Sequence record: PX853108.1
Origin: a phage
Length of the DNA: 64,000 nt
Direction: 5' to 3' (one strand)
Below are positions 5,159 to 62,587 of this stretch, piece after piece; positions within the stretch are counted from its first letter, which is position 1, and each line of letters opens with the position of its first letter. The notes under the pieces are model-generated. The model worked only from the letters and a program-made list of their open reading frames with translations, ran no database searches and was not told the origin of the DNA. The position numbers and the translations under genes were made by a program.

Positions 5159-5869
5159 ATGCAGAAATTATCGGAAGTATATCGTGGCTTGGCACTAAGT
5201 ACCTTGAAGGGTACTGGTGCAGTCACTGATGACAGATTAGGCATTGAACCAGATAGCAAGCCTGAAATATTGGCAGCTATTAATGAAGGGCTGGTACGAC
5301 TACATAGTCGTTTCCCTTTAAGGACTAATAGCTGCATTGTGGAGATGAAGGAAGGTCGTACTGATTATCCCCTTCAATCCAGATATGCTTACTCCAAATT
5401 TATTAAGCCTACTCTTGAGATTCAATACCCATATATCATGGATGGGTTCATGAAACCTTTCCAGGATGATGTCATTAAAATCTTAAATGTGTTTGATAAC
5501 TCAGGGAATCGACGTAGACTGAACGACGATTCAGACCCTCATGCAATCTTTACTCCTCGGCCTGATACTATTCAGTGTATGCGACCTCGACACTTCGAGG
5601 CACTTAACGTAACTTATCAAGCTAAGCACCCTGTACTTACGGGTGATGAAGAACAGGAAGTTGATTTAGCTGATACGCTAATGACGGCACTTCATAACTG
5701 GGTGGGTTATCGTTACCACACTGGTTTGAATACTCCGGAAGCTAATGCTAAGGCAGCAGAGTATCTGCAAACATATGAAAGCATCTGTGGTGAGGTTGTT
5801 GATTACGACCTGGCTAATGGAAGTATTTCAATTACCGAAACTAAATTTGAACAACGAGGATGGCGATGA
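5159..5869 (+). CDS. Virion structural protein (tail-associated by position)
   Basis: 236 aa ORF with RBS GAGGAA; lies between terminase and the tailspike-like genes. Confidence 0.3.
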   Translation: MQKLSEVYRGLALSTLKGTGAVTDDRLGIEPDSKPEILAAINEGLVRLHSRFPLRTNSCIVEMKEGRTDYPLQSRYAYSKFIKPTLEIQYPYIMDGFMKPFQDDVIKILNVFDNSGNRRRLNDDSDPHAIFTPRPDTIQCMRPRHFEALNVTYQAKHPVLTGDEEQEVDLADTLMTALHNWVGYRYHTGLNTPEANAKAAEYLQTYESICGEVVDYDLANGSISITETKFEQRGWR

Positions 5870-8547
5870 ACGCACATACCCCCTTTGATGCAAAACAGGA
5901 TTGGACCAATCCTTACTGCCAAAACAGTTCCAATGACCCAATGGTAGATGCATTACTTGGTAATGCTTACCATGTGGTTCGTACTGTTTACTGTAACTTG
6001 GGTAACCTTAAACTTTTGTATGATTTCCTGAACCAGTATGGAATGGTTCTTGGTGTACAGTCAGAGGCAGAACTTAAAGCATTAACTACTAAAGCTAAGT
6101 ATGCACGTATCTATGGCTTTTCTCGTACAGGTGACCGGCAGGTAACTGACTACCTGTATGTGGAAGGTGATCGTACAGGCATTATCCCTGATGACCCAAA
6201 GGCAACAGGTTCATGGATTACTGTTGCTACTTCTGGTTCCACCGGTGGTGGTACTTCTTCCAGCGAAGGTGCTTACATTCCTTGGGTATACAGCAATGGT
6301 TCCGCTACTGGTGGGGAAACCACAATCAACGTACCAGATGGTACGGTAGGTGTGCCTTTCATTATTGTTAATGGCGACATGCAGTATGTAGGCCGTGGCT
6401 TTGAGTTTAATATTGACAGTCTGTCTGTAACTCTGGCTCAACCTTTAGAAGAAGGGGATGAAGTAGTATTCCTTCTGACAGGAGTGCCTGCTGTACCAGA
6501 TAATCCTAACGTTAATGACTGGGTTCAGATTAACTGGTTATACAACAATGGTGCTGCTGTAGGTGGTGAACAGGTTATTACTATTCCTTACACCTTCCAG
6601 TCTATTCCGGCTGTGTATAAGAATGGACTACGTTTGTATAAAGGATTAACTACTGAGTCCTATACTGCTGACCCAGATAACCAACGTATTTTTCTTACCG
6701 AACCACTGACAACCAATGACCGTCTGATTGTACAGATTGGAGGGGAAACACAGGTACTGGAAACATCAGACCATACTATTCAGGAAGTTGCTCGTGCAGC
6801 TAACGTTAAGGATAGTGAGGTAATTCTTAGTACTGACGTTACTCAATTCTTAAATGGTAAGAAGATTGTTTATTCTGTTAGTGAGCAGAAGGCTTATGGG
6901 TTACCTTCTTTGCCTACCAATGTGTACATTCAATCCGTAGAGAACGGTAAGCTTACATACTCCCCTGGAGCCGTGGAAGTAGATTTAGTTCCTATCCCTG
7001 GTTCCTCTGAAGAATTAAAAAATAGTTTAATATCTGATACTGGGGCTGCCATAGTGAGCACTAGTTCTGGTGCAACTGTACAAGCAGAACTTGATAATAT
7101 TACAGAGAAATTGGGGGACTCTTACCCAAATATAAGAGGTAATATTAATACACCTGCAACTGGGTATGTATTCCAACCATATACCCGCTATTACGGCGAC
7201 CATGACATTCGATACATTGGGGGCGGTAATCCTAAGTCAACTAAGCGATTTAAAAAAGATGGGCATGAAACAATAACTCTTACTGGGATTTCTACGACGG
7301 CATCTAATCCTCCAACCATATCGGTGGATACAGTTGCATATGTAAACCCTGCTAGTGCTGACCCTGATGATAGAACCTTCCCTGCAAGTATTACCTTTAA
7401 CGGCCTAGCCTTTGTAGGTGATGATGATGAGACGGGGGAAGTTGGATTAACCATCCTTCAGGGTCAGAATTTCCAGATTCAAGATTGTGGTTTTAGTAAG
7501 ACTAAACTGGCAACTTGGTTTGTAGATGTATGGATGACCAGTGTGAGTAATTCCACCTTCTTTGGGCAGGTTCGCCATGATGGAGGTACTAGCTGTTTCT
7601 ACACTAACTGTTATGCCACTGTACATGATGCCTCAGTACCACTAGGTGCATACAGAATTTCTAATATTCAGTATGGTAATATGACCTCTTGTGCCTCGGA
7701 TGGGACGATAAATGGTGCTTACTGGTTTAACGGTAATAATGGATTAACAGTTAATAACTGTGGGTCAGAAGTTCCTACCACAATGGACAGGAACTATGGT
7801 ACTGCTGCGCACTTTGAAAAAAGTAATGAGATGGTACTTACCAATTTTTATACTTTACCCGCAGAAGGTACTAACATGCTCATATCAGTAAAAGATGATA
7901 ATGAGTTAGTATTCAATAACATGATGGTATACGGTAGCCCTGATAGATACAGCCGGGATTTCTGGTTTACAGGCACGAACAATAACTTGATTATTAATGG
8001 GGGCATCTTTGGTAATCGAGGAGACTTCCCACGTATTGCCACAGACCATGCAGGAAACACTGTAATTTACAATGCTGTTAATGGTAACTCATACATATGG
8101 AAAACTAAAACAGCGGCCATCACTGCTGTATGGGAACCAAAGTACCTTTCACAGACATTGGATACTACATCTGATGTCGTATTTACGAACAGCGGTCCTG
8201 TAACAGGAGGAACACGAGATATTAAATTCACTAAGAATGGTAATACTGCTACTGTTGAATTTGATATTACTATTCCAAGTGTTTCTGGTGCAGTGGGACA
8301 ACTTCGTATAAATGGTTTGCCTTATGCTGCTGCTCAACAAGCTAGTGGTAGTGTAGCTATAGCCATTGGTTTAGGTACGGGTGTTGGTAATATTTCTTGT
8401 GCCGTTATCAGAAATGGGACTGAGATACTGTTCTATAAATCTACAACAGCAGGCGGTGTATCATCCGCACTTGTGCCATCAGACCTAACCGATGGATGCA
8501 GCCTTCGCGGTAGTATTACCTACTCCTGTGTATCCGATTGGGATTAA
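5860..8547 (+). CDS. Tail fibre / tailspike-like protein with beta-helix-type C-terminal region
   Basis: 895 aa; Gly/Thr/Asn-rich repetitive C-terminal half typical of parallel beta-helix receptor-binding proteins; internal ~70 aa module (nt ~6781-7015) homologous to the N-terminus of the next gene. Alternative start ATG 5866. Confidence 0.45.
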   Translation: MAMNAHTPFDAKQDWTNPYCQNSSNDPMVDALLGNAYHVVRTVYCNLGNLKLLYDFLNQYGMVLGVQSEAELKALTTKAKYARIYGFSRTGDRQVTDYLYVEGDRTGIIPDDPKATGSWITVATSGSTGGGTSSSEGAYIPWVYSNGSATGGETTINVPDGTVGVPFIIVNGDMQYVGRGFEFNIDSLSVTLAQPLEEGDEVVFLLTGVPAVPDNPNVNDWVQINWLYNNGAAVGGEQVITIPYTFQSIPAVYKNGLRLYKGLTTESYTADPDNQRIFLTEPLTTNDRLIVQIGGETQVLETSDHTIQEVARAANVKDSEVILSTDVTQFLNGKKIVYSVSEQKAYGLPSLPTNVYIQSVENGKLTYSPGAVEVDLVPIPGSSEELKNSLISDTGAAIVSTSSGATVQAELDNITEKLGDSYPNIRGNINTPATGYVFQPYTRYYGDHDIRYIGGGNPKSTKRFKKDGHETITLTGISTTASNPPTISVDTVAYVNPASADPDDRTFPASITFNGLAFVGDDDETGEVGLTILQGQNFQIQDCGFSKTKLATWFVDVWMTSVSNSTFFGQVRHDGGTSCFYTNCYATVHDASVPLGAYRISNIQYGNMTSCASDGTINGAYWFNGNNGLTVNNCGSEVPTTMDRNYGTAAHFEKSNEMVLTNFYTLPAEGTNMLISVKDDNELVFNNMMVYGSPDRYSRDFWFTGTNNNLIINGGIFGNRGDFPRIATDHAGNTVIYNAVNGNSYIWKTKTAAITAVWEPKYLSQTLDTTSDVVFTNSGPVTGGTRDIKFTKNGNTATVEFDITIPSVSGAVGQLRINGLPYAAAQQASGSVAIAIGLGTGVGNISCAVIRNGTEILFYKSTTAGGVSSALVPSDLTDGCSLRGSITYSCVSDWD

Positions 8548-8601
8548 TATTTATATAGCCTCCGTAACTGGAGGCTTACTTAGAAAAACAAAGAGGTTGT
8601 T

Positions 8602-10485
8602 ATGAACGAAATGTTCTCACAAGGTGGTAAAGGTTCAACTGGTATTCTTACCAATAAGCAAGCCATTGCCCGTAAGTTTGGTGTTAAGCAGAATGAAGTA
8701 GTCTACTTTTCTGTAGGTGTAGACTTAGGTGGATACAAAGTCATTTATGATAAGACTACTCAACGTGCTTACTCATTGCCCGTACTTCCAGTAGGAACCA
8801 CTGCTGTAAGTCTCAGTGAGCAGGCAGTCCTGGTTCATTCAGCAGGTACAGTTGATTTGGGTGAACTGGCTGCTACACGTAGGGAATTCGTAAGCCTGTC
8901 TGATACGTTTGCTACTGGTTTGGTAGTGAATACTCGAAATGAGATTCTGATGCATGATGGTATAGGTTATACCTATTTAGGTGCTCTACCTGTAACTATT
9001 GCCGCAGGAACTAACCCTGTCGGTAATTCTGACTGGAAGGCTCAGACAGACCCATATTTACGCACAGACTTGGCTAGTTCTGATGTAAACAAAGGCGCAT
9101 CGATTATCAACACTACTTCTGGTTTAAACGTTCAGGAGTCGCTAAACACCCTGAGGTTATCGGCTACCGCGAGTTCTATTTCGGCCAATCTGGCTTTAGG
9201 CTCCGCAAAAGTTATTGACTCCGTATCCAGTGCCGATTCTTTTATCCTCCCATCCTTCGCTACGTTAGAAGGGGGAGATAATTTCTTAACCGGCTTCATA
9301 GGAACCTCATACCAGAAAAACAAAACTATTCGTAAATCAAGTAATACAACTGTTACGTTAACAAACCAAGACCCCAGCGCTGGGAGTCAATCCGTGGACG
9401 CGGTTGTATACCAAGACCCGGCATGGCCAGGTGGCGCTGTATTTCCTCAAAAATCGGCATTAAAGCATATTACTATTGAGGGTAACTCTGCTGCTAACCC
9501 TAGTCAGGCCGGTTTTTTTGTATTACAAGGCGGAGTAGTTGACATTGAGAATGTGGATTTCATCAACTGCACCTATGCGATATGGGCTAAAGATATCTGG
9601 CAAAGCCGCATCTCCAGAGTATTCTCCAACAACGGAAAGATTCGCCTTGATAACGGTACGTCTGTTGTACTAACAGGATGTGGGTTGGCTTCTGCCGATA
9701 CTACAAGAACAGGCGCATTTGATCTTACGGGCATGAAGTATTCAACGCTTATTGGTTGTACATCAGACCATACTACCAATACTGCCTATTCATTCGATGC
9801 TTGTGAAGGAATTGTGCTGGACGCTTGCGGATGTGAGGGGGCCAACACCACAACAGCTAATTCTGGAACGGCTCTGGCTTTTAAAGATAACAATCATAAT
9901 ATAGTGGTCAACGCTTTCACATGTTTCCCGGTAGCTGACCAAGGCCCCGCTTTGATATCATTCGGTAGTAACAACCAGGTAACCCTAAACTCGTTCGAGG
10001 TTATACCAGGAATTACATATAATGGGGACATATACCTTTATGGGGCTAATTCTCATATCACTATAAACGGGGGACGCTTTGGTTCAGACGGCAATGCTAT
10101 GCCTATTGTAACGGCTTCGGCTAATGCCATTGGCTCCACTATAACATATCATCACCGCAGGGGTATTACGTATACATACACAGTAACAGCCGCAGGAATT
10201 GTAACTCCGGTACAACATTTCCGCCCTATTGTGTCTGCTGTTATTAACTCTGATGGTACTGTTAGAAGCGGTTTCGGCGTTAATAATGTAACTAAAAATA
10301 GCACAGGTTCTTACACTATTAATTTCACTAGTGAGATTGCCACGGGATATGCGATCCAACATTTATCCTCATTTGGATTTGTGCAGGTGAGCGTTTTCGA
10401 CTCAACAACACTAACGGTATTATTCCTTGACCCAAGCAAAACACCAACTGATACGGACTTCTCGGTTAATATAGCTGGCTGGTAA
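8602..10485 (+). CDS. Tailspike-like protein, pectate-lyase-like beta-helix (putative depolymerase)
   Basis: 627 aa; RBS AAGAGG; N-terminal module (nt ~8665-8866) shared with gene 5860-8547; Asn/Cys-rich repeats (ITIEGNSAA...VDIENVDFINCTYAIWAK...) suggest a right-handed beta-helix. Confidence 0.45.
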   Translation: MNEMFSQGGKGSTGILTNKQAIARKFGVKQNEVVYFSVGVDLGGYKVIYDKTTQRAYSLPVLPVGTTAVSLSEQAVLVHSAGTVDLGELAATRREFVSLSDTFATGLVVNTRNEILMHDGIGYTYLGALPVTIAAGTNPVGNSDWKAQTDPYLRTDLASSDVNKGASIINTTSGLNVQESLNTLRLSATASSISANLALGSAKVIDSVSSADSFILPSFATLEGGDNFLTGFIGTSYQKNKTIRKSSNTTVTLTNQDPSAGSQSVDAVVYQDPAWPGGAVFPQKSALKHITIEGNSAANPSQAGFFVLQGGVVDIENVDFINCTYAIWAKDIWQSRISRVFSNNGKIRLDNGTSVVLTGCGLASADTTRTGAFDLTGMKYSTLIGCTSDHTTNTAYSFDACEGIVLDACGCEGANTTTANSGTALAFKDNNHNIVVNAFTCFPVADQGPALISFGSNNQVTLNSFEVIPGITYNGDIYLYGANSHITINGGRFGSDGNAMPIVTASANAIGSTITYHHRRGITYTYTVTAAGIVTPVQHFRPIVSAVINSDGTVRSGFGVNNVTKNSTGSYTINFTSEIATGYAIQHLSSFGFVQVSVFDSTTLTVLFLDPSKTPTDTDFSVNIAGW

Positions 10486-11222: not shown

Positions 11223-11467
11223 GAAGAAAAGTAGAGTTAGTACCCAACTGGAAAAGGTGCTGGAAGTGGGCATCCATTCAGATTAGTACCGTTGGCTTAA
11301 TTTTATTTTCTGCCATAGATATTATCCAACCAATGATGACAGGATTACCTCGTCACATCCTGGAAGATATTCCCCATGGTTCCAATATTGCAATTGCACT
11401 GTTTGCCTTGAACATCATAGGCAGATTAATACGATTCCGACCAAAGGAAGATTCTCATGAAAGCTAA
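11207..11467 (+). CDS. Holin candidate (two predicted TM segments)
   Basis: ORF 11141-11467 trimmed to ATG 11207, which overlaps the upstream stop; two hydrophobic segments; stop overlaps the endolysin start (ATGA). Confidence 0.4.
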   Translation: MVRRLRRKVELVPNWKRCWKWASIQISTVGLILFSAIDIIQPMMTGLPRHILEDIPHGSNIAIALFALNIIGRLIRFRPKEDSHES

Positions 11468-12092
11468 ACAGAAACTTGCTGCGAAAGGTGGTGCAGTGGG
11501 AGGAGTTGTCGCTGCTATCCTGGGGGCAGTGTTTTATATGGAAGGGGGATATGTAAACAATCCTCGTGACCCAGGTGGTGAAACTAATCATGGTATTACC
11601 CAAGCAGTAGCTAAGACCCACAAAGAAGTTCTGGCTACTGAATACGGTTGGGATGGTTCTATGAAAGGTTTATCTAAAGAGATGGCTGCTGAGATATACA
11701 TTGATGACTACGTACTTAAGCCTAACTTCGTAGCCTTCGCTGATATATCTCCTGCTGTAACACATAAGCTGGTAGATGCTGGTGTTAACACTGGTGTAAC
11801 CCGTCCTGCTAAGTGGTTGCAATTATCTCTTAATGAGATGTCCCGTAATGGCAAAGACTACCCTAAAATACAGGTTGATGGTAAAGTCGGTACAAGTACT
11901 GTTAATGCATATAAAGCATTACAGAAAAAACGAGGCAAAGTTGAAGCATGTAAAGTAATGATTAAGTTACTTGATGCTAAACAACTGAACCACTACACCT
12001 CATTAAACATGCCAGACTTTACGTATGGTTGGGTAGCTAACCGAATAGGCAATGTGCCACTGGAGGCATGTAATGAAGATGCTAATCTCTAA
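11457..12092 (+). CDS. SAR-type endolysin, N-acetylmuramidase (GH108-like)
   Basis: 211 aa; N-terminal weak Gly/Ala-rich hydrophobic segment (signal-anchor-release-like) followed by EGGYVNNPRDPGGETNHGIT, the EGGY catalytic motif of GH108 muramidases; RBS AAAGGAAG. Confidence 0.75.
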   Translation: MKAKQKLAAKGGAVGGVVAAILGAVFYMEGGYVNNPRDPGGETNHGITQAVAKTHKEVLATEYGWDGSMKGLSKEMAAEIYIDDYVLKPNFVAFADISPAVTHKLVDAGVNTGVTRPAKWLQLSLNEMSRNGKDYPKIQVDGKVGTSTVNAYKALQKKRGKVEACKVMIKLLDAKQLNHYTSLNMPDFTYGWVANRIGNVPLEACNEDANL

Positions 12093-12579
12093 AGGTTGGC
12101 CTTATCTTCTGGTGGTGGTCCTAGGGGCCACCATTTACTTTTGGGGTAATTCCAATGGACAGTCTACTGTTCAAAAGAAGTGGGATGACCAAAAGGTTGA
12201 AGATCAGAAGGCAATGCAAAAACTACAGGACAAATACAATGCTCTCCAAAGAAACCATAGTTATGAAGTCGGGTTACTCACTTCCCGGTTGCAGACGGCT
12301 GAGAGTAATTACGCAAGCGAGCTTGCTCGCGTTAGCAATGATTACGACAGCCGGATGCAACAGTCTGAAAGACGAGCATCGGTATATAAACGTCAAGCCG
12401 AAGCCGGAACCTTTGAGTGCAGAAGTCTTGCAAGCCATGCAGCCAGACTCGACAACAGTCTTGAAGAAGGCAGACGTTTGGTTGAAGAACTCCGGGCAAC
12501 TGTTAGACTCCGTGACAGCCAACTAATTGAGTTGGGTAAACAGATTCAGGCTGACCGTAAACTTTTTGAACAGGAATAA
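12073..12579 (+). CDS. i-spanin (Rz-like)
   Basis: ORF 12052-12579 trimmed to ATG 12073 (GGAGG at 6 nt); N-terminal TM helix then long charged coiled-coil; directly follows the endolysin. Confidence 0.55.
12263..12526 (+). CDS. o-spanin (Rz1-like), embedded in the +1 frame of the i-spanin gene
   Basis: Within ORF 12155-12526: hydrophobic leader ending in lipobox-like TTAGC, then proline-rich mature region ([11 protein letters not shown]); start codon uncertain (12239 or 12263). Confidence 0.45.
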   Translation: MKSGYSLPGCRRLRVITQASLLALAMITTAGCNSLKDEHRYINVKPKPEPLSAEVLQAMQPDSTTVLKKADVWLKNSGQLLDSVTAN

Positions 12580-41224: not shown

Positions 41225-43378
41225 TTACTTGCCAGCGAAGCGTTTAGCCACGGTGACCATTACGGTTGCATTCAATTCATCATCTGGTAATGGATTAGCC
41301 AGTTTCTTATTGAATGAGTGGACGGCTTGCTGTACTTGGGCAAAATCCCAACCACTGTCAACCAATGCCAGTGCGTACTTAATCATTTGATTATTACGAT
41401 TACCGGTAGCAATACGACTAGCGAACCAACGCTCCAGATTATCCAAGGACTGTACTTCCTTCATCTGGTTCCGGAACTGCTCGTTCTTACTAGTACGAGG
41501 AATAAAGTCACGCACGTCCAACAGATTTGCTTCAAGGTTGTAATGATAAGAACCAGTCTCGCAGGACATCCATTTCTTGGCTCGTTGGTTAGCAGATTCA
41601 TCCGTTTCGAATGGTAGCCAAGACATAACGTTATTCATGAACTCTTTGTATTCCTCGGTGTCGAGGTGTAACTCATAGTTCATTGGAATAATCAGTCGGA
41701 AGCGGTTCTCTTCATCAGAATGACGCTTAGTGGTATAGGTCATGAACTTATATTCCTTCATTAGTTCATGGCACGTATGCAGTGGTACTCCACCATCACA
41801 GTCAATAACAATCATGTTAAATCCTGGAATAACGTTCTCTTCAGAACGGTGTCCATTCTTCATGTGATGGTTTACCCAGTGCATACCGGGAGCTTGGGTT
41901 AATACATGCAACTGGTCGAACGGTACACGTTCACCAATGTAGTCATAAGCAAAGCTATCACTATATGCCACTATCATCTCATTGATGTCAGTCTCTTTCA
42001 GAGTCTCACCACGGAAGAACTCAATACCTTCGTTGAAGGTTTTCTTAATGATGATGTGCTGTTTGTAGCCCCATGCTGTAGCAAGGGTCATCATCTCATT
42101 ACGAGCTGCATTGCCACTCTTATAGAACGGCAATGACTCTAGTAAGTCAGCATGAGTCACTTCTTTACCTACAGAGGCAATGTACTTAGCCAGCTTCACA
42201 TAGGCTTTCTCACGATTGAGAATACCCTGGAATGCTGCTCCAGATTCTTCTACAAGCAAAATTGCTTGTTTAAGATGAGACATCTCAATGAATGAACTCT
42301 GGTCAACAAATGCCAGTGCTCCAGCTAGTTTAAGTGCTTTGAAGTAACGGTGGGAGATTTCAGCCTTACGAATTTCTTCGTGGTCAGCCATAGCTTCTGC
42401 TTGTTTCTCACAATCAATTTTGTAAGTAATCAGAGCAATCCCCACTGCATCTTCTACAACCATCTTAAAGCCAAACAGGTTCGGGTCAGCCAGACTATGG
42501 AAGTGGTTAGCCCACTTACCAAGAGACTGTACGTTATCCTGCTTAATCAGGTTACGGTAGATTTCTTCCGGAGACATTGTTGCATGTGCTCGTTTGTCTA
42601 AATGCCCAATGGCAAACAGACAGCGACGTGCATATCCTGTATCGAGGAAGTCATAGAACTGGTCTTCAGTCTGACCACCATCCAGTAGCTTACTTGGTGT
42701 ACCAAACAACAACAGGTTAGCTGGAGTCTTACCATCCAGTTCTTCACCACGAACACTTTCAGCAGTGTTTTTGGTTAGCTTCTGCTTAACCTTACCCTGG
42801 TCATATAATTCCAGGAACAGGGTTAACACATCTGTGTTAGCCAGCAGGTTCGAACCAATTTCATCAATCTGAAGGTTGATTGAACCACACCCAGCCATTA
42901 ACAGCTTATGACGTAGCTGTTTAACTGCTGGTGGAGTACCAGAGTCAAACGTAAACGGATATGCCCCGGCACGTTTATACTCTGCTTCAACTTTATCAAA
43001 CTCATCATTCTGGTCTGTACCTTGACGAGCAGCACGTTCGTTAGCAATCTTCCATAAACGGTCATTTGCAATGACGGGCATGGTGTCTTCCATAAAGCGT
43101 TTACGGAAGCCAGTCATGAACCCGTCTTCAATAATATTTACCGAGTGACCTTTACCGAAACCAGATGTAGCCAACGCAATGGCGTAGATGTTTACCGGCA
43201 GGTCACCACGGTCTTTAGTTACAATGGTTGCACCCATGCAGGATGCCATTTTAGCCAAGAAGTAGGCTACTTCGACACGGAAAAATCCCCGGTCATTATT
43301 CTGGGTTTTATTGCAGAGCACATCTACGATTTCTTCAATCGCTGGATGGTGACTGATGCCAGTAAGGTCGATACTCAT
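41225..43378 (-). CDS. DNA primase (AEP-type prim-pol domain with PriCT-like C-terminus)
   Basis: 717 aa; N-terminal P-loop-like ATSGFGKGHS; C-terminal half has IVIDCDGG (DxD) and PLHTCHEL (His motif) as in archaeo-eukaryotic primases, then a PriCT-like tail. Confidence 0.5.
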   Translation of the reverse strand: MSIDLTGISHHPAIEEIVDVLCNKTQNNDRGFFRVEVAYFLAKMASCMGATIVTKDRGDLPVNIYAIALATSGFGKGHSVNIIEDGFMTGFRKRFMEDTMPVIANDRLWKIANERAARQGTDQNDEFDKVEAEYKRAGAYPFTFDSGTPPAVKQLRHKLLMAGCGSINLQIDEIGSNLLANTDVLTLFLELYDQGKVKQKLTKNTAESVRGEELDGKTPANLLLFGTPSKLLDGGQTEDQFYDFLDTGYARRCLFAIGHLDKRAHATMSPEEIYRNLIKQDNVQSLGKWANHFHSLADPNLFGFKMVVEDAVGIALITYKIDCEKQAEAMADHEEIRKAEISHRYFKALKLAGALAFVDQSSFIEMSHLKQAILLVEESGAAFQGILNREKAYVKLAKYIASVGKEVTHADLLESLPFYKSGNAARNEMMTLATAWGYKQHIIIKKTFNEGIEFFRGETLKETDINEMIVAYSDSFAYDYIGERVPFDQLHVLTQAPGMHWVNHHMKNGHRSEENVIPGFNMIVIDCDGGVPLHTCHELMKEYKFMTYTTKRHSDEENRFRLIIPMNYELHLDTEEYKEFMNNVMSWLPFETDESANQRAKKWMSCETGSYHYNLEANLLDVRDFIPRTSKNEQFRNQMKEVQSLDNLERWFASRIATGNRNNQMIKYALALVDSGWDFAQVQQAVHSFNKKLANPLPDDELNATVMVTVAKRFAGK

Positions 43379-43890
43379 TTGATTAATCCTACGCTCTTAT
43401 TAGTGACGGCATATTCTCCGAAGTATTTTACGGCAGCTAAGTCATACGCTTTGGCTGCTTCAATTGCTTCCAGGAATACACCTAAATGAATTGATTTACG
43501 GTTTACTTTGATTTTGGCTAAGTAGTTACCCCTGAACTTAGTAACACCCATAAAACCACTGGTGTTGTTTTTATTCAGTCCACGGTTAGCACCATTGGTG
43601 CTTTTATCCGCTTCCCTTAGATTGTCTATCCAGTTGTGGTGACGTATGGTGTCTTTATGGTCTATTAAACCAGTAGGCCACATACCGTACACGTACAACC
43701 AAGCTAACCTATGAGCAGCTTCCCGTTTGGAATCAACTGTTATGTAGAGATAACCGTCACTGTTATTGAGCGACCCAGCAACACTACCGACAGGTGTTCG
43801 GTTACTGAGGGAGATGCGGCGAGTAAATATCCCAGTAAGTGGGTCATAATGCAGCAACTCTTTTAGCCGTTGCTGAGTCAGCTTAATCAT
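43375..43890 (-). CDS. HNH homing endonuclease with C-terminal AP2 DNA-binding domain
   Basis: ORF 43375-43947 trimmed to ATG 43890 (MIKLTQQRLKELL), which overlaps the upstream stop as ATGA; HNH core HRLAWLYVYG...IDHKD...N..NLREA; AP2-like SGFMGVTKFRGNYLAKIKVNRKSIHLGVFLEAIEAAKAYDLAAVKYFGEYA. Confidence 0.75.
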   Translation of the reverse strand: MIKLTQQRLKELLHYDPLTGIFTRRISLSNRTPVGSVAGSLNNSDGYLYITVDSKREAAHRLAWLYVYGMWPTGLIDHKDTIRHHNWIDNLREADKSTNGANRGLNKNNTSGFMGVTKFRGNYLAKIKVNRKSIHLGVFLEAIEAAKAYDLAAVKYFGEYAVTNKSVGLIK

Positions 43891-44867
43891 GATGGAAAAT
43901 ATCTCTCTCTTTGTTTGCAAATGGACGCGACAGGGCAGTATAGACAACGCTTAACCTGCCCCTCCACGACCTTGATAGCACCCTTGCCACCTTTTTCAGC
44001 CATGAAGATACGAGCAGATGCCATATCGTCAAAGTTTTTAGTACTTCTGGCTCCAGGTACATCTACCTTAGAAGCATCAGAGAAGTATTTGAACTGTGGC
44101 TCTGTTCGCCACAACTCCTCGTCAGTACATTCAGGAATTTCCTCTTCAGGTGCATTCCAGTACTTCTCAATGAGGTGAATCTTCTCTTCTACCCAACGTT
44201 CAGTCTTATCGACAGATAGCAACGGAATATCCTTATGCATAATACGATTAGCAGGATAGTTCGGATTGCTATTAGCCATGTGCTTCATGAAGTCAGTGAA
44301 GATGTAGTTAATACGAATTACATCCTCGGTAATGATGTCGTTGTGAATCCAACGATACAAGCTGCCTTGCATCTTGTGTTCATCATCACGGGAACCAGCA
44401 ACCCAGGAATAGGTTGAAGTAGACTTAAAGTCCTGCAACAGACCTTCTGTTACGATGTCGAACTTACCACCGATAGTCCAACCCTTAACTACCCTGGTTC
44501 CACGTTGTTCAATGTAGATTGGGATAAGGTCAGGGTTAGCATCAAAGTCTGCTTCGGTTGGGTTAATGACTACTGCATCAATTACTCGTTGAGGATATCC
44601 CAACTTCTTCAATGCAGTTTTATGGCCTAACTTCCAGGCTTTCTCGATAGAATCATGTAAACCAGTACCCATTGATGTGGAGACAAAATCCATAACATCA
44701 ATCGACTGGTCACTAAGATCTACACGATGTTTCATGACGATTTGCTTAATAGGCTTAAGCAATGTAGTAACAGACAGGTACTTAGGATTGTCTACGTAAT
44801 CATACTCGTCATGTAATAGCCATACAGCCAGAGCCAGTGAAACATCATGGTTGTTGGTTATCTTCAT
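43887..44867 (-). CDS. PD-(D/E)xK nuclease, Cas4/RecB-like
   Basis: 326 aa; FDIVTEG...QDFK motif and C-terminal CLYCPVASIC (Cx2Cx5C) as in Cas4/RecB-family exonucleases. Confidence 0.5.
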   Translation of the reverse strand: MKITNNHDVSLALAVWLLHDEYDYVDNPKYLSVTTLLKPIKQIVMKHRVDLSDQSIDVMDFVSTSMGTGLHDSIEKAWKLGHKTALKKLGYPQRVIDAVVINPTEADFDANPDLIPIYIEQRGTRVVKGWTIGGKFDIVTEGLLQDFKSTSTYSWVAGSRDDEHKMQGSLYRWIHNDIITEDVIRINYIFTDFMKHMANSNPNYPANRIMHKDIPLLSVDKTERWVEEKIHLIEKYWNAPEEEIPECTDEELWRTEPQFKYFSDASKVDVPGARSTKNFDDMASARIFMAEKGGKGAIKVVEGQVKRCLYCPVASICKQRERYFPS

Positions 44868-58523: not shown

Positions 58524-58766
58524 TTACTCTGCTTTACTGCCACCATTGGTTTGAACAACAGTTACATTTGTAACCTGGTTCTGACCTTTGTTGGACAGTG
58601 ACCAAATCAGTGCTACTACCCAGAATACTAGTGACCAGCCTAATACGATATTAAGCACACCAATACCCCACTTAGAGGCATGGCCTCGTGAAAAAGCAAT
58701 GATAGTAGGGATAAGGTATACAGCTAATACAAATAACAGAACAAGGATTGCTGCTAAAGATTCCAT
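58524..58766 (-). CDS. Superinfection-immunity-like (Imm family) small membrane protein
   Basis: ORF 58524-58802 (GTG) trimmed to ATG 58766 (AGGAA at 5 nt); PTIIAFSRGHASKWGIGVLNIVLGWSLVFWVVALIWSLS matches my recollection of the Imm superinfection-immunity family pattern. Confidence 0.5.
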   Translation of the reverse strand: MESLAAILVLLFVLAVYLIPTIIAFSRGHASKWGIGVLNIVLGWSLVFWVVALIWSLSNKGQNQVTNVTVVQTNGGSKAE

Positions 58767-58839
58767 GATGGTTCCTATGTGGGGTTGAGTTAGTTTCTTC
58801 ACAAATAGCCCAGCATAGTTGGGCTATTTAGGCAGTTAC

Positions 58840-59049
58840 TTACTCAGCATCTTTGCTTGCAGGAGCAAGAGCTTTCTTCAGGTAATTACGTACTGAACGA
58901 TAGGTTTCTTTGGTTTCTATATAGTTATTATCTACAAATATGACGCGTGCATGGTCAGACTGTGGAATCTGTTCTACTGCAATTACATTTGCAGCATTAA
59001 TGGTTAAGCGTACATCTGAGGTTGCATGAGTTACTTGAAATACTGACAT
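58840..59049 (-). CDS. Hypothetical small protein
   Basis: 69 aa ORF between the dCTP-deaminase-like gene and a hairpin at 58804-58828. Confidence 0.35.
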   Translation of the reverse strand: MSVFQVTHATSDVRLTINAANVIAVEQIPQSDHARVIFVDNNYIETKETYRSVRNYLKKALAPASKDAE

Positions 59050-61831: not shown

Positions 61832-62161
61832 TTAAGATTTGGTGCAGGGATATGCCTTATGTACTGAGTACACAATAATTTGGGATGTATTCTTCAATTT
61901 AAGGATTGCAGAGTCATAAATAACTACTTTGGCAATCTTAGGCAAAATGACTGAGTATTTGATACCTTCTGGAACACAGTTATCTGTGCTCTCTATGTAA
62001 GAGATCATACTGCCCATGAAGAACCCTTGCCCGAACGCATCACGGGTGTCGTCCAGGTAAGCCTGAGCACCTTCCAGAATTGGTTCTGGTTCAATTGCTT
62101 GTGCATTTGGGGCCAAAGCTATCAGTGCAGCTACTGCAACACCTTTAAGTAAAGTTTTCAT
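61832..62161 (-). CDS. Secreted/periplasmic protein (signal peptide)
   Basis: 109 aa; N-terminal MKTLLKGVAVAALIALAPNAQA looks like a Sec signal peptide with an AQA cleavage site. Confidence 0.45.
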   Translation of the reverse strand: MKTLLKGVAVAALIALAPNAQAIEPEPILEGAQAYLDDTRDAFGQGFFMGSMISYIESTDNCVPEGIKYSVILPKIAKVVIYDSAILKLKNTSQIIVYSVHKAYPCTKS

Positions 62162-62347
62162 TTAGTTACCTTTCATTTCATTGAGTTGAAGTACACCGAT
62201 AGGGGTTAATGACCACCCAAGACCAGCATTGAACTGTACTAAGCCCAGCTTCTTAAGAGACTGTGCGGTTTTGTTATTACGGTTGCTGGTGGCAGAGCCA
62301 CCTTGAACCATACGAAGGAAGATTGCCTGGGACTGGGTAAGTTTCAT
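62162..62347 (-). CDS. Hypothetical small protein
   Basis: 61 aa ORF, tightly packed with neighbours. Confidence 0.3.
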   Translation of the reverse strand: MKLTQSQAIFLRMVQGGSATSNRNNKTAQSLKKLGLVQFNAGLGWSLTPIGVLQLNEMKGN

Positions 62348-62532
62348 TTCTTCTCCGGTATGAACTGCATTACACAGTTTTGATTACGAGGGATATTAAG
62401 TTCACATTCATGCTTGAGGGTTTGAGTTACGGAGTTTGGAGTAGAACCAAAGTAGGTATTAGAAATAGCTACAAATCCTGCACCTATTAAACCACCCAGC
62501 AAGAATGAGAAGAATGCAATTTCTTTATACAT
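62344..62532 (-). CDS. Small membrane protein
   Basis: 62 aa; hydrophobic N-terminus FFSFLLGGLIGAGFVAI; preceded by a terminator. Confidence 0.35.
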   Translation of the reverse strand: MYKEIAFFSFLLGGLIGAGFVAISNTYFGSTPNSVTQTLKHECELNIPRNQNCVMQFIPEKK

Positions 62533-62557: not shown

Positions 62558-62587
62558 AAAAAAAGACCTCCCTTCAATAGGGAGGTC
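62558..62587 (-). terminator. Intrinsic terminator (minus strand)
   Basis: Stem GACCTCCC/GGGAGGTC with 7-nt loop; minus strand then reads TTTTTTT. Confidence 0.6.

Follow-up and report, generated by a model that had tools for sequence, protein, structure and literature searches.

The window analyzed here is a 64,000-nucleotide stretch of phage DNA (sequence record PX853108.1), and the gene under study lies in its middle-gene region, which is that of an N4-like Gamaleyavirus. The neighbors are the phage middle genes 17.1 and 17.2, the gp24 ATPase and the VWA protein gp25, and the original prediction of a small protein in a non-structural region of the genome was correct in that respect. The features of the locus are as follows.

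62565..62587, minus strand: terminator-like hairpin and T-run, separating the Hoc-like gp17 from the 17.1-17.2-17.3-gp24 block
62344..62532, minus strand: equivalent of G7C gp17.1, 62 aa, the first ORF of the unit
62162..62347, minus strand: equivalent of G7C gp17.2, 61 aa, the 5' neighbor ORF, without a signal peptide
62169..62173, minus strand: Shine-Dalgarno-like AAAGG, 7 nt 5' of the ATG of the next ORF
61832..62161, minus strand: ATG-to-TAA coding sequence of a Rap1a/Tai4a-like precursor of 109 aa, in the position of G7C gp17.3
62096..62161, minus strand: predicted Sec signal peptide MKTLLKGVAVAALIALAPNAQA, residues 1-22, with cleavage after AQA, from hydropathy and the -3/-1 rule
61835..62095, minus strand: mature domain, 87 aa, a predicted five-helix bundle of the Rap1a fold, from AF2 and Foldseek
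61976..61978, minus strand: codon of invariant Cys62 in the alpha2-alpha3 loop, predicted disulfide partner
61844..61846, minus strand: codon of invariant Cys106 in a C-terminal YPC motif after alpha5, predicted disulfide partner
61860..62145, minus strand: hypervariable cassette core, with nucleotide identity of about 0.4-0.7 to phages G7C, PBM-3, Moonfish, UE-M3 and phi G17

The 17.2 equivalent ends directly against the start codon of the Rap1a-like gene, hence the two are probably co-transcribed, and no terminator-like hairpin with T-run was found at the boundary with gp24. Among the close Gamaleyaviruses compared, 17.2 is 89-97% identical regardless of which allele class of the Rap1a-like gene follows it, and it is 45% identical in the more distant Jgk1. 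The 17.1 ORF has a hydrophobic N-terminal helix and a C-terminal portion bearing 2 cysteines, and is for that reason probably membrane-anchored; a homolog of it is also found in Klebsiella phage BaqKoxi.

The ORF at 61832-62161 is a genuine conserved gene. It is found full-length in 57 phage records, its match to PHROG 11132 spans the full length at 1e-60, and inside its own allele class it has a dN/dS of 0.15. The notion that it is a non-functional or mis-called remnant, with an N-terminus resembling a signal by chance, could appeal to the weak Pfam score of the single sequence and to nothing else, and it is effectively refuted by those records, by that ratio at a dS the same as that of the neighboring genes, by a confident AF2 fold, and by a signal peptide and cysteines that are invariant in relatives down to about 25% identity.

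The N-terminus has the 3 regions of a Sec signal, with an n-region MKTLLK of charge +2, an unbroken hydrophobic h-region GVAVAALIALA reaching a Kyte-Doolittle mean of 3.08 in a 9-residue window, and a c-region PNAQA that places Ala at both -3 and -1, the predicted cleavage junction falling between MKTLLKGVAVAALIALAPNAQA and IEPEP. In a rule-based scan over the 293 six-frame ORFs of at least 45 aa in the window, this ORF had the top signal score, 5.08, followed by an apparently non-coding ORF at 4.66. A Sec signal is retained in all relatives and alleles, down to those with no more than 25-45% identity in the mature part, with the cleavage motifs AQA, AKA, AHA, VEA, THA, APA and VFA. Residues 1-19 have AF2 pLDDT below 50. 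Sec export with a cut after Ala22 is a rule-based prediction, and the Sec-type signal with an AQA site that had been proposed from the sequence is borne out by the regions, the score and the conservation. The accompanying claim that this is the only clearly secreted non-structural protein in the window is too strong, because other exported or membrane candidates are the 17.1 ORF, the endolysin (11457-12092), whose N-terminal segment is SAR-like, an Rz1-like lipoprotein encoded by an embedded ORF (12155-12526), and an Imm-like membrane protein (58524-58802; PF14373, 61 bits). What does hold in the rule-based scan is that the Rap1a-like ORF is the sole carrier in the window of a classical cleavable AXA signal.

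The sole Pfam match of the window protein is to Rap1a, PF18602, at 13.7 bits (E = 0.095), which is under the curated cut-off, or gathering score, of 27.7 bits. The cut-off is reached at the level of the family, the window sequence alone falling short of it: the Moonfish allele, 43-45% identical to the window protein, scores 29.6 bits, and the consensus from an HMM of the phage family reaches 34.0 bits (E = 4.3 × 10−8) over profile positions 8-90 of 90. Rap1a is the top match for each relative tested and is matched by 24 of 24 members of the phage family, any other Pfam family being matched by 2 at most. The label is already in the databases, as "Rap1a immunity protein domain-containing protein" in UniProt on the orthologs from Bp4 (98% identical) and SP5M, and as Rap1a or Tai4 in a few GenBank phage records, but no relevant paper came up in a literature search on phage-encoded Tai4, Rap1a or T6SS immunity. 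One nr entry bears the automatic name "RAP1A ... COMPLEX".

Wider searches place the phage family by itself. Against PDB chains, phmmer and hmmsearch with the window protein, the Moonfish allele and 2 family alignments gave no Rap1a or Tai4 match, the relationship being too remote for sequence-to-profile searching against single chains. Word-indexed searching of 5.8 billion proteins, which extended to a profile of the mature domain taken to E = 10, returned phage-type relatives only and no bacterial bridge. HMMER run exhaustively over 1.84 billion representatives found 8 matches and no close bacterial relatives, and all 4 of the contigs examined had an N4-like phage context. In IMG/VR, a narrower family alignment found 8 loci, all on contigs of about 70 kb; tblastn with the family consensus found no match in 72,556 plasmids, and an NCBIfam search gave nothing relevant. 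With no close bacterial relatives, the phage family must long have been on an evolutionary path separate from that of T6SS immunity genes, and its target may have changed over that separation.

The AF2 model of the mature domain has a pLDDT of 91.5 and a pTM of 0.83, with helices at mature residues 5-15, 20-36, 47-60, 62-66 and 70-81. Foldseek against the PDB ranks Rap1a (3zfi_A) first with TM-scores of 0.56/0.53 and an E-value of 1.1 that is not significant, and finds AtTai4 (6ije_A) with 0.60/0.53 and a likewise non-significant E-value of 5.6. The only PDB matches with TM above 0.5 are Rap1a 3zfi_A and the Agrobacterium tumefaciens Tai4 entries 6ije_A and 6ijf_A, the remaining matches having query-normalized TM of 0.40 or less. 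When the signal peptide is left in the model, the pLDDT is 79, alpha1 and alpha2 are fused, and Rap1a comes second, all of which is fixed by removing the signal. In the structural alignment, Rap1a and the window protein are about 10% identical. The 2 cysteines are invariant and spaced by exactly 44 residues in 24 of 24 family members, and from this pattern we predict a Cys62-Cys106 disulfide. The most conserved motif, Q45-G46-x-F48-x-G50, sits in modeled alpha2, and a homodimer formed through that helix would be compatible with it. Most of the variability falls on helices 3-5 and their loops, with the alpha2 motif, the cysteines, and V76/A77 buried in helix 3 conserved. Since the single sequence stays under the Pfam cut-off, the PDB sequence and profile searches found nothing and the Foldseek E-values are not significant, the assignment rests on the family-level profiles, the TM-scores and the cysteine pattern, and on these the window protein is very probably a periplasmic protein of the Rap1a family.

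Rap1a (SMA2260) of Serratia marcescens, also called Tai4a, is the immunity protein for the T6SS DL-endopeptidase Ssp1 (PDB IDs: 3ZFI and 4BI8). Characterized Rap1a/Tai4a proteins act in the periplasm on peptidoglycan endopeptidases by steric blocking, the dimers of Rap1a and AtTai4 occluding the active site of Ssp1/Tae4 (PMC3852654, PMC6277958). Rap1a has a cleaved 26-residue signal and a Cys78-Cys122 disulfide from the alpha2-alpha3 loop to the C-terminus (PMC3852654). Rap1a is the best structural match of the phage protein and, at the level of the family, its Pfam profile is matched over the gathering score; the phage protein shares the N-terminal signal and a periplasmic location, predicted in its case, a five-helix mature domain of about 90 residues, slightly shorter in the phage, and the cysteines 44 apart with what would be the same loop-to-C-terminus disulfide. 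It differs in coming from a lytic phage, outside a T6SS cluster and without an adjacent effector, and in that its alleles, several in number and far diverged, replace one another at a single locus. AtTai4 (Atu4346; PDB IDs: 6IJE and 6IJF) is a homodimer of the Rap1a fold with 5 helices and a Cys80-Cys124 disulfide, spaced by 44 as in the phage protein, but it is cognate to an adjacent Tae4, and it makes longer contacts by alpha2 and the alpha1-alpha2 loop, which may be missing from the phage protein. The Gln84 with which Rap1a blocks the active site is not conserved even in AtTai4, so there is no diagnostic contact residue to look for in the phage protein, and the positions matching the Ssp1 contacts of Rap1a, in a cysteine-anchored rough hand estimate, are variable but not clearly beyond the rest of the surface.

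The name Tai4 in some GenBank phage records is explained by AtTai4 carrying that name despite its Rap1a fold. The classical Tai4 fold (Rap2a, Rap1b, EcTai4, StTai4) has a protruding loop and a disulfide of the Cys42-Cys102 type, and is unrelated to the Rap1a fold (PMC3852654). A classical Tai4 identity was rejected: the S. Typhimurium, E. cloacae and Rap2a structures are absent from the 31 PDB matches, among which the Rap1a-fold entries are present. With those structures unmatched and the folds unrelated, the GenBank product name "tai4 protein" is right only in the loose sense of AtTai4.

In a 30-nt sliding window, nucleotide identity to the 5 phages listed above falls solely inside the Rap1a-like ORF, the flanking 17.2 and gp24 staying at about 0.8 or higher and mostly at 0.87 or more, and within the cassette core there is a conserved island at 62011-62040 that reaches 0.87 and encodes the QGYFMG motif. 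By gene, amino acid identity to G7C is 96.8% for 17.1, 96.7% for 17.2, 36.7% for the Rap1a-like protein, and 96.0% for gp24. Identity to the window protein across the 57 records is bimodal: 23 lie at or above 89.7%, 34 do not exceed 45%, and none fall between. There are at least 5 allele classes in phages infecting the same species, 33-45% identical to one another in amino acids, whereas the flanking genes are 84-99% identical. Because within-class dS equals that of the neighboring genes and dN/dS is 0.15, we read these as old alleles exchanged by recombination and not as decay.

In 6 whole genomes, including the early region, no ORF co-varies with allele class, a result that would fit a target from outside the phage. 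A gp27-like ORF (58840-59049) was considered as a partner and dropped, the link seen in the 6 genomes being broken by SP5M and pSb-1. A phage-encoded Tae4 or NlpC/P60 target was also rejected, as it is absent from the annotations of 4 relatives and from a Pfam scan of 9 structural and lysis-region proteins, 8 of them structural. The endolysin is a GH108 muramidase, not one of the papain-like endopeptidases on which Rap1a proteins act. Nor is the gene adjacent to a Tae4/Ssp1 effector in a T6SS locus, which is a feature of genomic context and separate from the fold of the protein. The sharply bounded cassette and the lack of a co-varying phage gene or a Tae4-like gene appear to be new, and together the family assignment and the cassette-like hypervariability, neither of them in the original prediction, are the most informative features of the gene.

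What the protein does for the phage, including any inhibitor activity and the identity of its target, we infer from these features. The original prediction suggested an enzyme inhibitor among its possible roles, which fits membership in a family that blocks periplasmic peptidoglycan endopeptidases, and we put inhibition of some peptidoglycan hydrolase at slightly better than an even chance. Our tentative preference, which we hold at a little less than even, is that the protein, an orphan, guards the infected cell from within the periplasm by inhibiting cell-wall endopeptidases that come in from outside. The gene would be transcribed along with the middle genes, and the 109-aa precursor exported by Sec and cut after Ala22, leaving an 87-aa mature part to fold in the oxidizing periplasm into a five-helix bundle locked by the Cys62-Cys106 disulfide. 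The mature protein would probably dimerize through the conserved QG-F-G helix, alpha2, and could then act by tight steric inhibition of a papain-like peptidoglycan endopeptidase (NlpC/P60, Tae4/Ssp1-type) entering the periplasm from outside. With that enzyme blocked, the infected cell would not lose its wall before the programmed lysis of the phage itself, and the diverged allele classes swapping at the slot would be distinct inhibitor specificities. The likeliest targets would be type VI secretion amidase effectors from neighboring Enterobacteria, although that the target is a T6SS effector is itself possible at best to the same degree. Against this preferred reading stand the sub-threshold scores of the single sequence and of Foldseek, the long separation of the phage family from T6SS immunity genes, the lack of a diagnostic contact residue, and the absence here of a cognate effector or T6SS context, which defined every characterized member of the family.

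The same features, a small, helical, periplasmic protein of an inhibitor family, would also serve for superinfection exclusion, in which the protein inhibits wall-degrading virion enzymes of other phages. T4 Sp (Spackle, gp61.3) carries a signal peptide and inhibits the gp5 tail lysozyme in the periplasm, acting alongside the membrane protein Imm. By functional analogy only, the Rap1a-like protein is likewise a small, helical, signal-bearing, pre-lysis phage protein, and the Imm-like protein (PF14373), which the G7C annotation also calls Imm-like, is encoded 3 kb downstream in the same direction of transcription; the hypervariability of the alleles, and their assortment without regard to the other genes of the phage, would fit an arms race between phages. 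Similarity to Spackle was not found in Pfam, PHROGs, PDB fold or PDB sequence searches, however, and the targets differ, Spackle acting on a lysozyme and the characterized Rap1a-fold proteins on papain-like DL-endopeptidases, which are cysteine enzymes. No Tae4-type enzyme is known to us from coliphage virions, and exclusion of close kin is unlikely given that neither the annotations of relatives nor the 9 scanned proteins contain such a domain. We consider superinfection exclusion quite unlikely. Less likely still, and in our view improbable, is control of lysis, where the protein would restrain a host NlpC/P60 endopeptidase such as MepS or MepH, or the lysis machinery of the phage, and so time lysis or prevent early failure of the wall. 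The NlpC/P60 superfamily includes host enzymes, so a periplasmic protein of a family with targets in that superfamily is suitably placed, and its expression from the middle-gene block, apart from the late lysis cassette, would suit it too. Yet conserved host enzymes leave the 5 or more allele classes, 33-45% identical in phages of the same host species, unexplained, and the holin, endolysin and spanin genes do not track allele class in the 6 genomes, endolysin and spanin being 94-98% identical and the holin-region ORF 53-92%. The GH108 endolysin is of the wrong enzyme class and there is no antiholin similarity, and the suggestion of a lysis regulator, also part of the original prediction, found no support.

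Homology might instead fail to predict the target, the Rap1a fold being re-used for another periplasmic ligand such as a colicin or CDI toxin domain, an envelope protein or a receptor. The isolation of the family in sequence space, with its 8 representatives and about 10% structural-alignment identity to Rap1a, points that way, as do the missing effector context and the contents of the same slot in related N4-like phages, where Klebsiella phage BaqKoxi has a 119-aa ORF with a Sec signal, and BEU5 has an ORF, Band_7-like by neighbor annotation, with a lipoprotein-type signal. As these are unrelated exported proteins, the slot seems to gather diverse accessory genes that act on the envelope. The strict retention of the disulfide cysteines with their 44-residue spacing, the 5 helices and the alpha2 motif, and the resemblance of variable helices 3-5 on a conserved scaffold to a changing binding face, tell against re-use, while staying compatible with another ligand. 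On the whole we find it unlikely, if a little less so than superinfection exclusion.

Returning to the orphan inhibitor of incoming endopeptidases, T6SS immunity proteins are seen either as self-protection encoded next to a toxin or as orphan genes retained by bacteria. Bacterial orphan immunity genes, for example those in the AID clusters of gut Bacteroidales and in Salmonella islets, resemble the phage gene in being mobile, variable and without a cognate effector, and are thought to guard against non-self attackers. The difference is that they persist on chromosomes or integrative elements whereas the phage carrier is virulent, so that, with the host dead within one cycle, any benefit must fall to the phage during its latent period. 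Benefit from T6SS immunity within a short lytic cycle would be plausible, but the literature search turned up no report of one. The full proposal, that virulent N4-like coliphages carry a swappable, hypervariable, orphan T6SS-type immunity cassette that shields the infected cell from the peptidoglycan-cleaving effectors of its neighbors during the latent period, which would make warfare between bacteria a source of selection on the genomes of lytic phages, and phages a reservoir for specificities of immunity, is in our view rather doubtful.

In the present case a gene of an immunity family is under purifying selection in a virulent phage, which swaps deeply diverged alleles of it at one slot and has no partner for it. 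If the proposal is true, attack on the cell wall from outside, by rival bacteria or rival phages, would be frequent enough to affect phage fitness, and this could matter for phage therapy where bacteria are dense and polymicrobial, Gamaleyaviruses being frequent therapy candidates. Should the target turn out to be different, the cassette remains a compact and well-defined arms-race locus with at least 5 specificities to compare.

The window phage, an N4-like podovirus of E. coli in the genus Gamaleyavirus (Schitoviridae), is G7C-like and shares about 94% DNA identity with phages nithesis, ZQ2, ECBP1, and Bp4. The local order is gp17 (a Hoc-like decoration protein), 17.1, 17.2, 17.3, gp24 (an AAA ATPase), gp25 (metallopeptidase-like plus VWA), and dCTP deaminase, all on a single strand within the middle-gene block. 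The ORF at 61832-62161 takes the place of G7C gp17.3. The features around 17.3, which we call the Rap1a-like gene, are:

62587-62565, terminator-like hairpin before 17.1
62344-62532, minus strand, 17.1, 62 aa, probably membrane-anchored, hydrophobic helix at the N-terminal end, Cys-x10-Cys segment in the C-terminal part
62162-62347, minus strand, 17.2, 61 aa, soluble and basic
61832-62161, minus strand, Rap1a-like gene (17.3), exactly one ATG-to-TAA ORF, 109 aa

Because a hairpin precedes 17.1 and no terminator-like hairpin is found between 17.3 and gp24, 17.1-17.2-17.3-gp24 look co-transcribed. The 17.1 and 17.2 proteins match PHROGs 7508 and 7665, both without assigned function. They are 84-98% identical across the close Gamaleyaviruses compared, regardless of which diverged version (allele class) of the Rap1a-like protein is present, and just 45-48% in the more distant Jgk1; conservation of 17.1 extends to Klebsiella phage BaqKoxi.

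The ATG of the Rap1a-like ORF directly adjoins the TAA of the upstream ORF, with an AAAGG Shine-Dalgarno sequence 7 nt upstream. A spurious ORF is effectively excluded by its conservation across phage records, its dN/dS, its confident fold model, and its invariant cysteines. The protein begins MKTLLK-GVAVAALIALA-PNAQA followed by IEPEP, where the n-region has two lysines, the uncharged hydrophobic core of 11 residues reaches a Kyte-Doolittle 9-mer mean of 3.08, and the c-region has a helix-breaking Pro and then Ala at −3 and −1. Cleavage is predicted after AQA. A rule-based signal scan covering all 293 six-frame ORFs of 45 aa or longer put this ORF at the top of the window. The original observation of a small Sec-signal-bearing protein with an AQA site is confirmed. 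Calling it the sole secreted non-structural protein of the window was too strong, since other exported or membrane proteins are encoded, namely 17.1 and, in the following list, the endolysin, the embedded Rz1-like ORF, and the Imm-like protein; the list also includes the i-spanin and 2 proteins from the slot upstream of gp24 in other N4-like genera:

11457-12092, plus strand, endolysin, GH108 plus PG_binding_3, with a SAR-like N-terminal segment
12052-12579, plus strand, Rz-like i-spanin, containing the embedded out-of-frame ORF 12155-12526
12155-12526, plus strand, Rz1-like lipoprotein ORF with a lipobox-like motif, embedded out of frame
58524-58802, minus strand, T4 Imm-like superinfection immunity membrane protein, 92 aa, Pfam Imm_superinfect PF14373, 61.4 bits
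L034 1399-1758 (Klebsiella phage BaqKoxi), ORF of 119 aa with a clear Sec signal, MKKLAIASAILLGSMVGFVEA followed by KP...
L035 819-1655 (Escherichia phage BEU5), ORF of 278 aa with a lipoprotein-type signal

The endolysin N-terminus is charged and continues into a Gly/Ala/Val-rich hydrophobic segment, MKAKQKLAAKGGAVGGVVAAILGAVFY, which resembles a signal-anchor-release (SAR) domain more than it does a cleavable signal. The lipobox-like motif makes ORF 12155-12526 a probable o-spanin, and G7C gp60 and gp60' are annotated likewise as an Rz-like spanin with an embedded ORF. The Imm-like ORF shares its middle-gene block with the Rap1a-like gene, and its G7C counterpart is annotated as Imm-like. 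Other N4-like genera have unrelated envelope-targeted proteins in the slot upstream of the gp24 ATPase; the BEU5 ORF is taken to be a Band_7/SPFH-like candidate because a similar-sized Band_7 (PF01145) gene lies in this region of metagenomic N4-like relatives. Accessory genes that act on the cell envelope may use this region as a general landing site.

The only Pfam match of the window protein is Rap1a (PF18602) at 13.7 bits, below the 27.7-bit cut-off; its PHROG match, 11132, has unknown function, and PDB sequence searches returned nothing. This single sequence is weak evidence of Rap1a membership. The evidence at the family level is strong: Rap1a is the best Pfam match for every relative tested, the Moonfish allele clears the cut-off at 29.6 bits, and the mature-domain HMM consensus matches profile positions 8-90 of 90 with 34.0 bits (E = 4.3e-8), with Rap1a matched by 24/24 family members and any other Pfam family by at most 2. 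A sharp independent marker is the cysteine pattern, in which Cys62 (alpha2-alpha3 loop of the model) and Cys106 (C-terminal YPC motif) are invariant at a spacing of exactly 44 residues in all 24 members. Rap1a itself has a Cys78 (alpha2-alpha3 loop)-Cys122 disulfide, apparently needed for correct folding, and a cleaved 26-residue signal (PMC3852654), and AtTai4 has a Cys80-Cys124 disulfide; the spacing equals that of the predicted phage pair. From the Pfam matches and the cysteines together, the phage protein very probably belongs to the Rap1a ("Tai4a") family. The classical Tai4 fold (Rap2a, EcTai4, StTai4) was rejected, being absent among the fold matches of the modelled protein and described as unrelated to the Rap1a fold (PMC3852654). 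In the alignment of 24 members, conservation falls on alpha2 (Q45, G46, F48, G50, V52), which is the dimer interface in Rap1a and AtTai4, and on Y35, V76, A77, and the 2 cysteines, with high variability in helices 3-5 and their loops.

The Rap1a label is already in databases and is not new. In UniProt the orthologues from Bp4 (98% identical) and SP5M are called "Rap1a immunity protein domain-containing protein", several GenBank records read Rap1a, Tai4, or "tai4 protein", and one nr entry carries the automatic name "RAP1A ... COMPLEX". Literature searches found no paper mentioning or studying the phage protein and, as far as we found, its cassette behaviour and its independence from any phage partner are undescribed. 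By fold and family-level sequence this is a member of a known family in an unusual deployment, as an orphan in a virulent phage and as a hypervariable cassette.

Between the window phage and G7C, amino acid identity is 96.8% for 17.1, 96.7% for 17.2, and 96.0% for gp24, versus 36.7% for the Rap1a-like gene, and the same contrast, low in this gene only, is seen against PBM-3, Moonfish, UE-M3, phi G17, and U1G. Measured over 30 nt, nucleotide identity stays at roughly 0.8 or higher, and for the most part at 0.87 or higher, in 17.2 and gp24 on either side. Between about 62145 and about 61860 it is only about 0.4-0.7, apart from one conserved island at the QGYFMG motif, and it rises again at the conserved last codons. 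The gene is thus a hypervariable cassette with sharp boundaries. Identity of the records to the window protein has a bimodal distribution, with 23/57 records at 89.7% or more, 34/57 at 45% or less, and none between; cultured phages hold at least 5 allele classes (window type, G7C type, Moonfish, phi G17, Jgk1), and metagenomic N4-like contigs add further ones. Within the window's class the gene evolves normally. Its dS of 0.21 equals that of the neighbouring genes, and its dN/dS of 0.15 compares with 0.05-0.08 for the larger neighbours 17.1, gp24, gp25, and dCTP deaminase and with 0.16, from one pair only, for the small 17.2 ORF. On these values the classes are old functional alleles swapped by recombination, with the gene neither decaying nor fast-mutating.

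A gp24 homologue is found in 501 phage records, the 109-aa Rap1a-like protein in only 57. These 57 are almost all named Escherichia/Shigella phages or Gamaleyavirus, all 68-76 kb, and every one whose taxonomy was read is Gamaleyavirus or unclassified Schitoviridae; this confinement makes it an accessory gene of the Gamaleyavirus group. The family is isolated: when 1.84 billion representatives were searched exhaustively with HMMER, 8 matched, with no close bacterial donor, and the 4 whose contigs were examined occupy the same region in N4-like phage surroundings.

In a comparison of six whole genomes, two from class A, two from B, and one each from C and D, allele class was not tracked by any phage gene. 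Only the gp27-like ORF (58840-59049, minus strand, 69 aa) mimicked the pattern in these six, and nothing comparable appeared in the early region. The gp27-like ORF was rejected as a partner because SP5M pairs a 97% gp27 with class B and pSb-1 a 46% gp27 with class A.

The mechanism known for the fold is steric, with a pre-formed disulfide-locked dimer binding two papain-like DL-endopeptidase molecules (Ssp1 or AtTae4) and blocking access to the active site in the periplasm (PMC3852654, PMC6277958). The window phage endolysin is a GH108 muramidase, and no Tae4/NlpC-P60-type gene appears in annotated relatives or in the nine structural and lysis-region proteins scanned (eight structural). From the conserved export signal and scaffold, the variable surface, the allele swapping, and the lack of a phage-encoded partner or target, we infer export, binding, and inhibition; the best-supported reading is that the phage would make a periplasmic inhibitor of an endopeptidase arriving from outside the infected cell. 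The only known targets of the Rap1a family are T6SS amidase effectors, and effectors of the Tae4 family are carried by enteric bacteria that live alongside E. coli, such as Serratia, Salmonella, Enterobacter, and Cronobacter. On these grounds we rank first, tentatively and at somewhat under even chances, that the inhibitor would be an orphan T6SS immunity protein, shielding the infected cell up to the time of programmed lysis.

The isolation of the phage family, and the unrelated exported proteins in the same slot of other N4-like genera, make it plausible that the Rap1a fold was re-used for another periplasmic ligand, to which we would give about one chance in four. A little less probable is superinfection exclusion by analogy with T4, which pairs Imm with Spackle, a periplasmic lysozyme inhibitor; an Imm homologue does lie 3 kb downstream of the Rap1a-like gene, but the phage protein has no fold relation to Spackle and we know of no coliphage virion enzyme of Tae4 type. 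Of the originally proposed lysis regulator or enzyme inhibitor, the periplasmic inhibitor half is supported. Control of host or phage lysis enzymes is improbable, the endolysin being of the wrong enzyme class and conserved targets leaving at least 5 allele classes unexplained. The annotation itself will not surprise a specialist; the suggested T6SS-phage link is easy to test.

Other variable loci were noted in these genomes. The gp27-like ORF ranges from 100% down to 37-49% identity among Gamaleyaviruses, assorts independently of the Rap1a-like alleles, occurs also in Erwinia N4-like phages, and is labelled "flagellar and swarming motility protein" or "methyl-accepting/DNA response regulator" in some records. 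Two large tail-fibre/tailspike ORFs (window 5860-10485, plus strand) share only N-terminal parts with relatives (23-55% of length matched), which is expected host-range mosaicism unrelated to Rap1a-like allele class. HNH homing endonuclease genes (window 43375-43947, minus strand) differ among genomes that are otherwise near-identical, being missing from some or strongly divergent. In relatives, for example, one such insertion separates gp24 from gp25 in G7C, and another lies inside gp24 of U1G and splits the ATPase gene.
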